A stretch of DNA of 64,000 nucleotides from Escherichia coli. Lineage in GTDB: Bacteria; Pseudomonadota; Gammaproteobacteria; Enterobacterales; Enterobacteriaceae. Below the pieces are notes generated by a model, which saw only the letters and a list, made by a program, of their open reading frames with translations, was not told where the DNA came from and did no database searches. Made by a program: the position numbers and the translations under genes. The stretch lies in assembly GCF_041886205.1 (NCBI RefSeq), contig NZ_CP169029.1. The stretch is one strand, 5' to 3'. Below, piece by piece: positions 17,783-22,251 of the stretch (within the stretch, counting starts at the first letter, position 1; each line of letters begins with the position of its first letter).

Positions 17783-18421
17783 ATGCCCGGGCGCTTTGAA
17801 CTAAAACCAACCCTGGAGAAAGTCTGGCACGCGCCGGACAATTTTCGCTTCATGGACCCGCTGCCGCCGATGCATCGTCGGGGGATCATTATTGCCGCCA
17901 TTATATTGGTGGTCGGATTTCTGCTTCCATCTGATGATACGCCCAACGCGCCGGTGGTGACGCGTGAAGCGCAGTTAGATATTCAGTCGCAATCACAACC
18001 GCCGACAGAAGAACAGCTGCGGGCGCAATTAGTCACACCACAAAATGATCCTGATCAGGTGGCTCCGGTCGCTCCAGAACCTATACAGGAAGGCCAGCCA
18101 GAAGAACAGCCGCAAACTACCCAAACACAACCATTCCAGCCAGATAGCGGAATTGATAATCAATGGCGCTCTTACCGTGTCGAACCCGGTAAAACGATGG
18201 CGCAGCTGTTCCGCGACCACGGACTGCCCGCTACCGATGTCTATGCAATGGCGCAGGTAGAAGGCGCGGGTAAGCCGCTGAGTAATTTGCAAAACGGGCA
18301 AATGGTGAAAATCCGCCAGAACGCCAGCGGCGTGGTGACGGGCTTAACCATTGATACGGGGAATAATCAACAGGTCCTGTTCACCCGCCAGCCGGATGGC
18401 AGTTTTATTCGTGCGCGGTAG
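17783..18421 (+). CDS. ytfB: OapA/LysM-domain protein YtfB
   Basis: ORF 17747..18421, start at [23 protein letters not shown]; proline/glutamine-rich linker. Confidence 0.88.
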
Positions 18422-18522
18422 ATGAAGGGTCAACCAAAAGCCAGCTAAGGATTGTCTCTTTGATGACCTTACGTCTGGCTTCCAGTGCCTGGGGGGAAAC
18501 CATACTGATATGTTGACATCCT

Positions 18523-18542
18523 CCACGCCCTGAAGGACGTGG
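18523..18542 (-). repeat. Right-end subterminal hairpin of IS200/IS605 element (13 nt downstream of tnpB stop); candidate omega-RNA / TnpA recognition structure
   Basis: Top strand CCACGTCC-TTCA-GGGCGTGG, 8-bp stem with one G-T wobble. Confidence 0.6.
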
Positions 18543-18555
18543 ATCCCTGCTACGT

Positions 18556-19764
18556 TCAGGCTGTCGCCTGAATCATTTCGGTGGGTTCCTGCTTCAACGA
18601 GCGGCCTGACTGCACCATCTCTCCACAGGCAAGAACGGCGTGCCCCGCCGCTAAAATGTTACGAGCGCCATTTACATCGGCGTTCGCTGTATATCCACAT
18701 GCCTGGCATCTGAATTTACTTTGTGACAGGCGATTTTCTTTCGCTGTATGACCACAGCACGCGCATCGCTGGCTTGTGTACGCTGGCGGAACAGCAAGCA
18801 CCTGACCGCCACGCCAGAGCTGCTTGTACTCAAGCTGGCGGCGCATTTCATACCAGCCCTGATCCAGTATCGTACGGTTTAAACCTGATTTTGCCCGGAC
18901 ATTGCGACCCGGCTGGCTGACCGTACCCGCTGCTGACTTTGACATGTTGCTGACCTTCAAATCCTCAATGACTATCATTGCGTGGTTTTTGCTGACGGTC
19001 GTTGTGACTTTGTGAAGGTAGTCCCTGCGGATATTTGCGATACGGGAATGCAGTCGCTGTATTTTGCGTTCCTGCTTCTGCCAGTTATTGCTGAATTTGA
19101 CCTTGCGGCTTAACTGTCGCTGAAGTCTCGCCAGCTTCTTCTGGTTTTTCTGAAAACTGTTTACAGGCTCAAAGACTGTGCCATCTGACAGCGTGGCGAG
19201 TTTAGCCACGCCAGCATCCAGCCCGACCATTGATGCTGAAGGGTGAACCGGAGTTGATACTTCACTTTCTGTCTGAATACTGATGTACCACTTACCGCAG
19301 GACTGGCTGACAGTGACATTTTTCACAACTCCCGTGACCTGACGGCTATTCCGGTAGCGCATCCAGCCCAGTTTCGGCAGAAAAATACGGCTGTTTTCCT
19401 GATCGAGCTTAACGCCCTGCGGGTAGCGGAATGCATCATTCTGTCCCCGCTTTTTGAATCGGGGAAAAGCAGCCCGCTTCTGGAAGAAGTTTTTGTAAGC
19501 CCGCTCAAGGTCTTTCAGTGACTGTTGCAATGGCTGTGACGGGGCATCTTTAAGCCATTGCGTTTCAGTGGCATTTTTCCACTCAACCAGCCAGGAAGCC
19601 ATTTTTCCGTAAGGGATGTATTTATTACCGGCCTCATGATTCTCATTCTGACGTGCCAGAGCACGATTGAAAACGAAACGACATGCGCCTGCGAAGCGCC
19701 TCATTTCACGCTCCTGTTGACCACCGGGTCTTAACTGGAATTTAAATGCCTGTAGTCGTTTCAC
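18556..19764 (-). CDS. tnpB: TnpB (IS605 OrfB) RuvC-like RNA-guided endonuclease, 402 aa, apparent GTG start
   Basis: RuvC-I D in [10 protein letters not shown], RuvC-II E in [11 protein letters not shown], zinc finger CACCGH...CQACGY, RuvC-III D in ADVNGARNI. Confidence 0.85.
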
Positions 19765-19771
19765 AGGCCAA

Positions 19772-20386
19772 ATGATACTTTGGTCTGTGAAAAAAGAAAC
19801 CGATATCCGGCGTGGAAGGCATTGTGTTTTCCTGATGCATGTTCACCTGGTCTTTGTCACCAAATACCGACGCCAGATTTTTGACCATGACGCGACAGAA
19901 AAACTACGCACTTACTTTTCAAAGGTATGTGCTGATTTTGAAGCTGAACTGGTTGAAATGGATGGCGAACCAGATCACGTCCATTTGTTAATTAACTATC
20001 CTCCCAAACTGGCGATATCCAGTCTGGTAAACAGCCTCAAAGGCGTATCGGGTAGGTTACTGCGACGAGATCGACCAGATATTGCAGTCAGGTATTACTA
20101 CAAAGGCGTTTTGTGGAGTCCTGGCTATTTTGCCAGTAGCTGCGGAGGTGCGCCAATATCCGCCATCCGTCAATACATTGAACAACAGCAAACACCTGGT
20201 CAGGTGGAAAACCGCGCCGTATATCCCCGCCCTGAAGGACGGGGTTTTACGGCGCACCGGATAAACCAGGCCAAGCGTATGCTGGTTGATCCAATAATAT
20301 CCCCCAAGCGCAGCAATATTAATATTCACCTGCAATGGGTCGATATCTGGCTTAAAAATATTGTGTTTCTTTCCTTCATCCAATAA
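19772..20386 (+). CDS. tnpA: TnpA, IS200-type HUH Y1 transposase; ORF lacks a stop inside the predicted element and reads through the left end
   Basis: KYRR motif, HUH motif DHVHLLI, C-terminal Tyr in AIRQYIEQQ; start ATG only 7 bp from divergent tnpB start; functional protein probably ends near 20230-20260. Confidence 0.75.
20225..20244 (-). repeat. Left-end subterminal hairpin of IS200/IS605 element
   Basis: Top strand CCCCGTCC-TTCA-GGGCGGGG; shares loop and 12-nt core with right-end hairpin. Confidence 0.6.
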
Positions 20387-20604
20387 GGATTCCATTAACT
20401 GCAAGTGCGCATGGTTAATTTCTAAGAGACGCTGTGATTTTGCATAATGCACACCTTTACTTTGATTTTCACTATGCACAATTTTTAAAAACCACGGGTT
20501 AGCAATATAATAATCCCATGTAAAATCAATAATTTTCTCAATGGCTTTTTGTGGCTGGTTAACCAGATGATTAACAAACGCACCGATACCGACAGCGTAG
20601 AATA
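20245..20604 (-). pseudogene. ytfA: ytfA remnant: C-terminal portion of a possible TetR-like regulator, no N-terminal HTH or start; 3' end runs into the IS element
   Basis: Open frame ...[77 protein letters not shown]... preceded by stop; continues antisense through tnpA 3' region. Confidence 0.5.
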
Positions 20605-21037: not shown

Positions 21038-21364
21038 ATGACTAAAAATACTCGTTTTTCCCCCGAAGTCCGTCAACGGGCAGTCCGTATGGTTCTGGAA
21101 AGTCAGAGCGAATATGACTCACAATGGGCGACAATTTGTTCCATTGCTCCAAAGATTGGCTGTACGCCGGAGACTCTGCGTGTCTGGGTTCGCCAGCATG
21201 AGCGGGATACCGGGGGCGGTGATGGAGGGCTCACCACCGCTGAACGTCAGCGTCTGAAAGAGCTGGAACGTGAAAATCGTGAACTGCGCCGCAGTAACGA
21301 TATCCTTCGCCAGGCTTCCGCTTATTTTGCGAAGGCGGAGTTCGACCGCCTCTGGAAAAAATGA
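21038..21364 (+). CDS. IS629 OrfA (HTH transposase subunit, 108 aa)
   Basis: [31 protein letters not shown]...; leucine-zipper-like C-terminus. Confidence 0.9.
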
Positions 21365-22251
21365 TGCCACTGCTGGATAAGCTGCGTGAGCAGTACGGGG
21401 TCGGACCGCTATGCAGCGAACTGCATATTGCCCCGTCAACGTATTACCACTGTCAGCAACAGCGACATCATCCGGATAAACGCAGTGCCCGTGCGCAGCG
21501 CGATGACTGGCTGAAGAAAGAGATACAGCGCGTATACGATGAAAATCACAAGGTATACGGTGTGCGTAAAGTCTGGCGTCAGTTGTTACGGGAAGGTATC
21601 AGAGTGGCCAGATGCACTGTGGCACGTCTCATGGCGGTTATGGGACTTGCCGGTGTTCTCCGGGGTAAAAAGGTCCGTACGACCATCAGCCGGAAAGCCG
21701 TTGCCGCAGGCGACCGCGTAAACCGTCAGTTCGTGGCAGAACGACCTGACCAGCTGTGGGTGGCTGATTTTACTTACGTCAGCACATGGCGGGGCTTCGT
21801 CTATGTGGCGTTCATCATTGATGTGTTTGCCGGATACATCGTGGGGTGGCGGGTCTCATCGTCCATGGAAACGACATTCGTGCTGGATGCACTGGAGCAG
21901 GCGTTATGGGCCCGTCGACCGTCCGGCACGGTCCATCACAGTGATAAAGGTTCTCAGTATGTATCGCTGGCCTACACACAGCGGCTTAAGGAAGCCGGAT
22001 TACTGGCATCAACAGGAAGTACAGGCGACTCGTATGACAACGCGATGGCGGAGAGCATCAATGGTCTTTACAAAGCGGAGGTAATACACCGTAAGAGCTG
22101 GAAAAACCGTGCAGAAGTGGAACTGGCCACACTCACGTGGGTGGACTGGTATAACAATCGACGATTGCTGGAAAGGCTGGGCCATACTCCTCCGGCAGAA
22201 GCAGAAAAAGCTTATTATGCTTCCATCGGAAACGATGATCTGGCAGCCTGA
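21361..22251 (+). CDS. IS629 OrfB (DDE integrase/transposase catalytic subunit, 296 aa); overlaps orfA, typical -1 frameshift arrangement
   Basis: rve-type core ...[49 protein letters not shown]...[11 protein letters not shown]...[15 protein letters not shown]. Confidence 0.9.

Follow-up and report, generated by a model that had tools for sequence, protein, structure and literature searches.

Several described systems form the background against which the locus presented here can be read. The closest is IS609 of Escherichia coli K-12 (insQ/ydcM, adjoining ydcO). For a metagenomic relative, PMC12781874 lists an "IS609 ωRNA scaffold" of 207 nucleotides (nt), the scaffold of the TnpB guide RNA (omega RNA, ωRNA, also termed reRNA), together with the target-adjacent motif (TAM) TTAT (Table S2), and it describes an IS609-type TnpB and scaffold that were purified and assayed. 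A second point of reference is ISDra2 of Deinococcus radiodurans, whose TnpB is available in the structures 8exa, 8bf8 and 8h1j. For the DNA ends, IS608 of Helicobacter pylori serves as the model: TTAC lies 19 nt 5' of the left hairpin (left imperfect palindrome, IP_L), TCAA lies 10 nt 3' of the right one (IP_R), and the cleavage sites are recognised by the tetranucleotides that adjoin the hairpin feet on their 5' side, as in the pair AAAG/TTAC (PMC3201880).

The stretch analysed here, called the window throughout, comprises 64,000 nt of the E. coli contig NZ_CP169029.1. It contains an element with two related hairpins that is IS609, a catalogued E. coli insertion sequence of the IS200/IS605 family with divergent tnpA and tnpB genes, and thus the same element as the K-12 copy. 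The right end of the window copy very probably combines a hairpin for the transposase TnpA with the scaffold of a TnpB ωRNA, with the adjoining host flank as the guide. Specifically, this reading draws on mapped element boundaries, a covarying and strand-specific structure, a flank that differs from copy to copy, a match of TAM plus target in an empty allele and intact TnpB motifs. No rival explanation covers the covariation inside the coding region together with a fixed end and a variable flank.

The element and its genes, with the left end (LE) at the high and the right end (RE) at the low coordinate, are laid out as follows.

18513 to 20260, minus strand: IS609 element, 1748 bp; its top strand is the minus strand of the window
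20261 to 20264, minus strand: TTAT, target and left cleavage site, predicted TAM; outside the element, directly 5' of LE; TTAT in the E. coli copies that retain LE
18513 to 18516, minus strand: TCAA, RE cleavage site that closes the element, its last base 10 nt from the hairpin foot on the 3' side; within the conserved GAGGATGTCAA
18556 to 19764, minus strand: tnpB, 402 amino acids, GTG start, intact; matches NF040570 guided_TnpB and the ISDra2 structures
19772 to 20386, plus strand: tnpA, Y1 HUH transposase with complete core and lost stop; matches NF033573, annotated by PGAP as a pseudogene

The name IS609 rests on RefSeq annotation and on a K-12-lineage copy (NEB10-beta) that is ~98% identical to 18513 to 20260. 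When positions 18300-20500 were compared by megablast with 5426 complete E. coli genomes, the whole stretch was recovered in many of them, and in a record of 100% identity PGAP annotates an "RNA-guided endonuclease InsQ/TnpB" and an "IS200/IS605-like element IS609 family transposase", flanked by ytfB and by the two halves of a TetR/AcrR gene. Copies at other places (ydcO in K-12-lineage strains, yedK, a DUF3251 gene, a DUF1869 gene and a plasmid) align only over 18510/18513 to 20265, and five other E. coli copies share exactly the same span with unrelated flanks. The insertion site of the window copy, which differs from that of the K-12 copy, is a TetR-family gene downstream of ytfB (the ytfA locus) that overlaps the end of ytfB convergently and is split by the element.

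An uninterrupted version of this site is found in strain ATCC 25922. On the tnpB-sense strand (a slash marks the junction), the empty site reads ...CCTGGTTTAT/CACATCAG..., or in short ...GGTTTAT/CACATCAG..., and the occupied site reads ...CCTGGTTTAT/CCGGTGCG ... GGATGTCAA/CATATCAG..., or in short GGTTTAT/CCGG...GTCAA/CATATCAG. This comparison defines the element as 18513 to 20260, inserted without duplication, and a 1-nt ambiguity of a G at the junction is settled by the conserved TCAA end. The order on the tnpB-sense strand is thus TTAT, then LE through to the TCAA of RE. The right end of the five other copies is always ...GGAGGATGTCAA, followed by unrelated sequence, and (T/C)TTAT stands 5' of LE in all E. 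coli copies that retain it (the window copy and four others), with a different flank in each; TTAT adjoins LE at five different sites, and the empty site holds a single TTAT. In a survey of TnpB elements, TTAT and TCAA were the commonest cleavage motifs detected at LE and RE, respectively (PMC9956272). Beyond E. coli, a TnpB protein scan of one genome per species yielded 67 related loci (numbered with the prefix L below) with 30-95% amino-acid identity, mainly from Enterobacterales, with some from Neisseriaceae, Methylococcaceae and others. About 45 of the 67 carry GAGGATGTCA(A/C) at a fixed distance past tnpB; GAGGATGTCAA is conserved at their ends, and the sequence beyond is unrelated. As in IS608, the window copy is inserted 3' of a tetranucleotide without duplication, and TCAA at 10 nt from the hairpin foot is common to both elements.

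The hairpins at the two ends were the starting point of the analysis.

18522 to 18543, minus strand: RE subterminal hairpin (IP_R), also helix H5 of the scaffold; 9 bp with a UUCA loop, 6 of 9 pairs with compensatory changes
20225 to 20244, minus strand: LE subterminal hairpin (IP_L); present in the relatives that retain LE, weak match to the RNA model (12.3 bits)
20245 to 20248, minus strand: AAAA, putative left guide tetranucleotide (G_L) directly 5' of the LE foot, by analogy with AAAG/TTAC of IS608

The sequence-only reading of this locus had described two 20-nt hairpins, each with an 8-bp stem, one G-T(U) wobble and an identical TTCA loop, as subterminal structures of the kind that TnpA recognises. 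Direct inspection bears this out for sequence, position and strand: the RE hairpin is CCACGTCC-TTCA-GGGCGTGG at 18523-18542 and the LE hairpin is CCCCGTCC-TTCA-GGGCGGGG at 20225-20244, both on the minus strand, and the former starts 13 nt past the last base of the tnpB stop (18556-18558), as had been stated. A repeat finder reports the pair as a 21-nt direct repeat of 90% identity on the same strand. The pattern CCNCGTCCTTCAGGGCGNGG, with up to two mismatches, occurs only at these two sites in the window and not once in 100 dinucleotide-preserving shuffles, and single-strand folding beats shuffled sequence at both ends (RE z = -2.6, LE z = -3.5). The RE stem can be extended to 9 bp (18522-18543). 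Both hairpins lie inside the mapped element, with the RE junction at 18513, and their feet stand 16 nt from the TTAT junction on the left and 10 nt from the TCAA end on the right, a geometry like that of IS608, in which, however, the left distance is 19 nt and the left motif is TTAC. The IS200/IS605 trait of subterminal imperfect palindromes on the same strand at both ends, without terminal inverted repeats, is therefore present. Other copies, and relatives belonging to other genera as well, also possess the second hairpin; in the relatives that retain LE, it stands 1731-1733 nt upstream of the RE end. Some E. coli copies are mismatched in the LE or the RE hairpin.

At LE, the hairpin is enclosed by a longer, imperfect palindrome whose arms measure 20 nt each (20214-20233 and 20236-20255) and which, like the orientation of the genes, sets the window element apart from IS608. 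This palindrome (20214-20255) reads GCGCCGTA-AAA-[hairpin]-ATA-TACGGCGC. Its outer stem covaries in relatives (gcgcc/ggcgc versus gtgcc/ggcac), is perfectly paired in the window copy, contains a G-A mismatch in the other E. coli copies (TAAGGCGC) and has no counterpart at the right end.

One might take the right hairpin for a terminator or an mRNA-stabilising 3' stem-loop of tnpB, and the left one for the same in tnpA. Their positions just past coding ends would suit such a role, the right one being 13 nt beyond the tnpB stop and the left one ~30 nt beyond the point where tnpA terminates in relatives. Yet neither stem is followed by a run of U, and a terminator scan called neither, on which grounds the hairpins were rejected as terminators. 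Furthermore, the hairpins lie on the same strand although the genes are divergent, so that the G-U pairs become A-C in the tnpA transcript, and the conserved sequence runs on to the fixed end GAGGATGTCAA. We regard this explanation as extremely improbable.

A second alternative holds that the hairpins are single-stranded DNA sites for TnpA only, with no guide-RNA function at the right end. The pair of hairpins, the spacing to TTAT and TCAA and the correlation of the tetranucleotide with the flank are all as TnpA recognition requires. Specifically, AAAA stands 5' of the LE hairpin where the flank is TTAT (the window copy, the other E. coli copies and at least 8 further loci, among them L010, L013, L014, L017, L018, L025 and L054), and AAAG where it is TTAC (four loci, L016, L019, L021 and L049), with two exceptions, L008 and L024, which are both visibly decayed copies. 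Since these loci are related, the pattern represents few independent events, and it would fit the rule for guide and cleavage site in IS608: the pair is AAAG/TTAC there, AAAA/TTAT in the window, and AAAG/TTAC again in some relatives. Recognition by TnpA, however, takes no more than the hairpin itself, the tetranucleotide on its 5' side and the cleavage site, whereas the conserved structure at the right end reaches much further.

18513 to 18661, minus strand: ωRNA scaffold core, 149 nt, from covariation and the covariance model; the 5' end may lie further upstream
18635 to 18651, minus strand: H1, scaffold helix inside the tnpB frame
18625 to 18629 with 18588 to 18592, minus strand: H2, scaffold helix inside the tnpB frame
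18600 to 18620, minus strand: H3, scaffold helix inside the tnpB frame
18552 to 18576, minus strand: H4, scaffold helix that holds the tnpB stop codon
18655 to 18659 with 18516 to 18520, minus strand: long-range pairing, 98% paired

The last 170 nt of the element were aligned for the window copy and 32 distinct relatives (33 sequences). RNAalifold proposes 38 pairs for this alignment, 20 of them with compensatory changes. Counted on a hand-written structure of five helices and one long-range pairing (41 pairs), standard pairs fill 94.8% of cells, compared with 40-51% when the 3' partner is slid by 1-3 columns, and 22 of the 41 pairs show changes on both sides, compared with 5-13 in the slid controls. 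None of 500 shuffles reaches any of five structure measures. H1-H3 lie wholly within the tnpB reading frame, and their covariation falls at synonymous sites; for instance, at columns 59 and 65, where GCG/GCA pairs with CAC/CAT, 16 sequences have GC, 16 have AU and one fails to pair. The many G-U pairs, which would be A-C on the opposite strand, place the constraint on the tnpB-sense strand.

The same constraint is visible in the gene itself. Six comparisons, the more diverged ones, show synonymous divergence 2-4 times lower in tnpB codons 356-402 (18556-18700) than elsewhere in tnpB (0.095 versus 0.350, for example, and 0.36-0.80 versus 1.24-1.59); the four closest E. coli pairs show only 0-1 synonymous differences in these codons. 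Several of the synonymous differences in the overlap are compensatory within stems. The 3' part of tnpB that overlaps the scaffold is a clear case of dual coding constraint.

To make the assessment independent of E. coli, a covariance model was built from 26 non-Escherichia relatives, with no Escherichia sequence among them. Its sole full-length match in the window is 18513-18661 on the minus strand (166.4 bits, E 4.5e-52), and a weak match falls on the LE hairpin through the positions of the RE hairpin (12.3 bits, E 0.03). Elsewhere, the other E. coli copies score 153-169 bits and a divergent Photorhabdus/Klebsiella subgroup 94-109 bits. No second copy of the RE end or of the scaffold RNA is present in the window. 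The published IS609 scaffold, moreover, aligns to 18513-18719 on the minus strand without gaps and with 82% of positions identical, and the TnpB that goes with it shares 85% identity with that of the window (PMC12781874). The proposal of the sequence-only reading that the right-end hairpin together with the 3' end of tnpB encodes an ωRNA scaffold has therefore gained both covarying structure, found also by the independent model, and a collinear published counterpart. The four further helices that extend ~100 nt into tnpB and covary at synonymous sites, and the collinearity with TnpB scaffolds that have been used experimentally, are not accounted for by sites for TnpA only, which makes that alternative highly improbable.

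Three candidates were set aside in drawing this structure. The RNAalifold pairs 131/182 and 132/181 (CC with GG) were discarded for want of covariation support. Pairing of the H2 5' strand with a second GCAGG (18546-18550) is less favoured, as the RAGATH-18 consensus backs the first pairing. The −10-like TAACAT at 18656-18661 was not counted as a promoter, being the 5' strand of the long-range pairing and having no −35 partner. We take the pairing of 18655-18659 with 18516-18520 to resemble the guide-adjacent pseudoknot of the ISDra2 structure.

Comparison with known RNAs links the scaffold to the TnpB guide RNAs. An Rfam search at E <= 1 gave no family at its gathering threshold on the scaffold. 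The sub-threshold matches, all on the minus strand, were HgcC (RF00062; 24.6 bits, gathering threshold 50), sot0042 (RF02656; 17.1 of 88) and RAGATH-18 (RF03064; 29.5 of 44.9), scores so far below gathering that the RNA is not a member of these families. PMC4615843 describes sotRNAs as sense transcripts from tnpB 3' ends, and HgcC as having the same right-end-like UUCA tetraloop. The guide RNAs of IS607 TnpBs have RAGATH-18 as their core (PMC11061315), and the RAGATH-18 consensus CCUGUGGAG...CGAUGAAGCAGGAA equals H2/H3 of the window scaffold; RAGATH-18 RNAs lie outside coding sequence and accompany IS607 elements, whereas the window scaffold overlaps tnpB. The 3' module GA(A/G)UC-hairpin(UUUA/UUCA)-GAG..UCAA also ends the scaffolds of ISDra2, ISDge10, ISYmu1, ISTel2 and ISAba30 (PMC12781874, Table S3). 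In ISDra2 it is GAAUC-hairpin(UUUA)-GAGGUUCAA, in the window GGAUC-hairpin(UUCA)-GAGGAUGUCAA. In both elements the RNA, which is a predicted one in the window copy, overlaps the tnpB 3' end and stops at RE; the flank supplies the guide, and the motif at which the transposon inserts doubles as the TAM. They differ in that IS609 has one hairpin more, H4, which separates the 3' strand of H2 from the terminal hairpin, that its TAM is TTAT instead of TTGAT, and that its tnpA and tnpB are divergent.

Directly beyond the scaffold lies the segment that would specify the target.

18493 to 18512, minus strand: predicted guide, 5'-CAUAUCAGUAUGGUUUCCCC-3', directly 3' of RE and specific to this copy; in a 16-nt version, 18497 to 18512

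The guide length of 16-20 nt is carried over from characterised TnpBs and would apply here by analogy. At the DNA level, the sequence past GTCAA is unrelated among six E. coli copies and ~40 related loci. The sequence-only reading had looked for a guide transcribed from the flank around 18430-18500, immediately downstream of ytfB. Its core idea stands, in that the sequence past RE is specific to the copy; the position has to be shifted, since the predicted guide runs from 18512 to 18497 or 18493 and falls only partly in that interval. Likewise, the flank does adjoin ytfB, yet it is not simply intergenic: it consists of what is left of the 3' part of the interrupted TetR-family gene, and this DNA would encode the guide. 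As the insertion site is different, the predicted guide differs from that of the K-12 copy.

The predicted target is TTAT followed by CATATCAGTATGGTTTCCCC. An empty allele in strain 120899 carries exactly this arrangement, TTAT and then a 30/30 match to the flank, so that a chromosomal target with the expected TAM, which the sequence-only reading had left to be sought, does exist; the empty allele of ATCC 25922 has 2 mismatches to the guide in 20. When the empty site was reconstructed from 100 nt of each flank, 3239 of the 5426 complete E. coli genomes proved to contain it uninterrupted. Most other genomes with a match, which were not counted separately, show the two halves as separate matches, as expected if the site is occupied, and genomes that appear to carry the insertion include O157:H7 and O104:H4 strains. 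Being polymorphic across E. coli, the insertion is either old or has spread by recombination. Allowing up to 3 mismatches, the guide matches nowhere else in the window, and it has no match in phages. Among plasmid records, the full-length matches with annotated features fall under the same TetR-family gene in very large records, and such large "plasmid" records carrying the ytfA locus look chromosome-sized or misassigned; a partial match lies on one 94-kb plasmid (H49). Judging from these searches, the unoccupied homing site is the only identified target of the predicted guide, as in the published model of TnpB function.

The proteins that would act on these ends are preserved to different degrees. 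TnpB matches NF040570 guided_TnpB with 390 bits (cut-off 100) and the ISDra2 structures 8bf8, 8exa and 8h1j with E 8e-56 over residues 3-376. It retains the RuvC-like triad D183, E267 and D363 and the CxxC pairs C334/C337 and C353/C356, the catalytic and zinc-binding motifs that it shares with its ISDra2 homologue. TnpA matches NF033573 transpos_IS200 with 147 bits (cut-off 55) over profile positions 2-126 of 126 and contains the motifs HVHLL and YIEQQ. In relatives belonging to other genera, TnpA ends right after ...YIEQQQTP(G/S); the corresponding stop of the window copy (20195-20200) is lost, and the reading frame continues through LE into the host flank to 20386, for ~60 extra codons. This stop loss distinguishes the window copy from K-12-type copies, which have a premature stop.

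The short region between the two genes also deserves mention. The divergent starts, tnpB GTG at 19764 and tnpA ATG at 19772, are 7 bp apart, and the tnpB start (19762-19764) is GTG in the chromosomal E. coli copies and ATG in the plasmid copy L007, in the Citrobacter locus L009 and in the distant relatives examined. A 14-nt inverted repeat of 93% complementarity (19759-19792; TTTCACAGGCCAAA / TTTGGTCTGTGAAA) spans both start codons and may be a shared regulatory site or a translation-control hairpin.

The available data are compatible with a model in which Y1-type TnpA would bind both top-strand hairpins as single-stranded DNA and would cut directly 3' of TTAT at LE and directly 3' of TCAA at RE. 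The right end, together with approximately the last 100 nt of the tnpB coding region, would encode the ωRNA scaffold, and transcription that passes TCAA into host DNA would add the 16-20 nt from 18512 to 18493 as the guide. By analogy with characterised systems, the RNA is presumably made and processed from the tnpB transcript, and we infer that it would bind TnpB and that the complex would cut TTAT-flanked targets. RNA-loaded TnpB would then recognise TTAT plus a guide match, the sequence that is recreated when the element is lost or that belongs to an allele never occupied. In turn, cleavage of the empty site by TnpB would favour retention or re-copying of the element.

Several observations weigh against this model. 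A promoter scan found no sigma-70-like promoter on the minus strand inside the tnpB 3' part, so that the RNA would need processing from the tnpB mRNA or an unrecognised promoter. The long-range pairing varies on one side only and shows no compensatory change, which leaves it weakly supported. In addition, the IS609-type TnpB was not the most active of the nine candidates assayed for trans-cleavage in PMC12781874. Finally, PGAP flags tnpA as a pseudogene in six of six E. coli copies examined: beyond the stop loss of the window copy, four copies have premature stops or a frameshift, with the stop after ...KGVSGR, and the plasmid copy L007 is truncated. The transposition half of the cycle may accordingly be dead.

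These tnpA defects and the missing promoter-like site lend some weight to a third alternative, in which the right end is a genuine IS609 end with an ωRNA-type scaffold that is an inactive relic here, its RNA not made or not used by TnpB and its conservation a result of recent common descent. The mismatches in the LE or RE hairpin of some copies agree with this, and the occupancy of this one site in roughly one in three complete E. coli genomes suggests little recent movement. The state of TnpB and of its scaffold speaks against it. The tnpB gene is intact in all six E. coli copies, with ratios of nonsynonymous to synonymous divergence (dN/dS) of 0.2-0.36 within E. coli and 0.07-0.10 against other genera; the window copy scores as high as any relative on the independent covariance model, and no helix is disrupted. 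Furthermore, for a sister copy, transcripts over the tnpB 3' end have been reported in RNA-seq of E. coli K12 (PMC4615843). We therefore consider an inactive relic decidedly unlikely, and a right end with both the TnpA hairpin and the ωRNA scaffold remains the favoured explanation.

A further mobile element lies nearby. An IS3-family element with orfA/orfB occupies 21038-22251, ~0.8 kb past the IS609 left end, and within it the frameshifting pseudoknot ALIL (RF01497) is strongly matched at 21319-21435 (120 bits). Strain C9, which is 100% identical over 18300-20500, has no annotated transposase within 1.5 kb beyond that stretch.

Taken together, the analysis fixes the exact ends, the TTAT target motif, the scaffold span and the guide of the window copy of IS609. 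A collinear IS609-type ωRNA scaffold with a TTAT TAM has already been published and the system is already known, so the results have little significance beyond correct annotation. The only thread with some, if partial, novelty is the combination of an apparently dead tnpA with an apparently live tnpB and scaffold at a polymorphic E. coli site. The defective tnpA and the intact tnpB in six of six copies, the undamaged scaffold and the polymorphic site raise the idea that IS609 persists in E. coli with its transposase dead and its TnpB/ωRNA live, which we rate as rather unlikely. If true, it would mean that TnpB and its ωRNA work without transposition. They could then serve as an allele drive, cleaving empty alleles that arrive when strains recombine; another possibility is that the host has co-opted TnpB and ωRNA for a different RNA-guided role. 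With the insertion occupied in about a third and empty in ~60% of genomes, and with a perfect match between the guide and the empty allele, E. coli provides a natural setting for such tests. The polymorphic site, the defective-looking transposase and the conserved TnpB would thus make the transposase-independent persistence of TnpB directly testable in a model organism.

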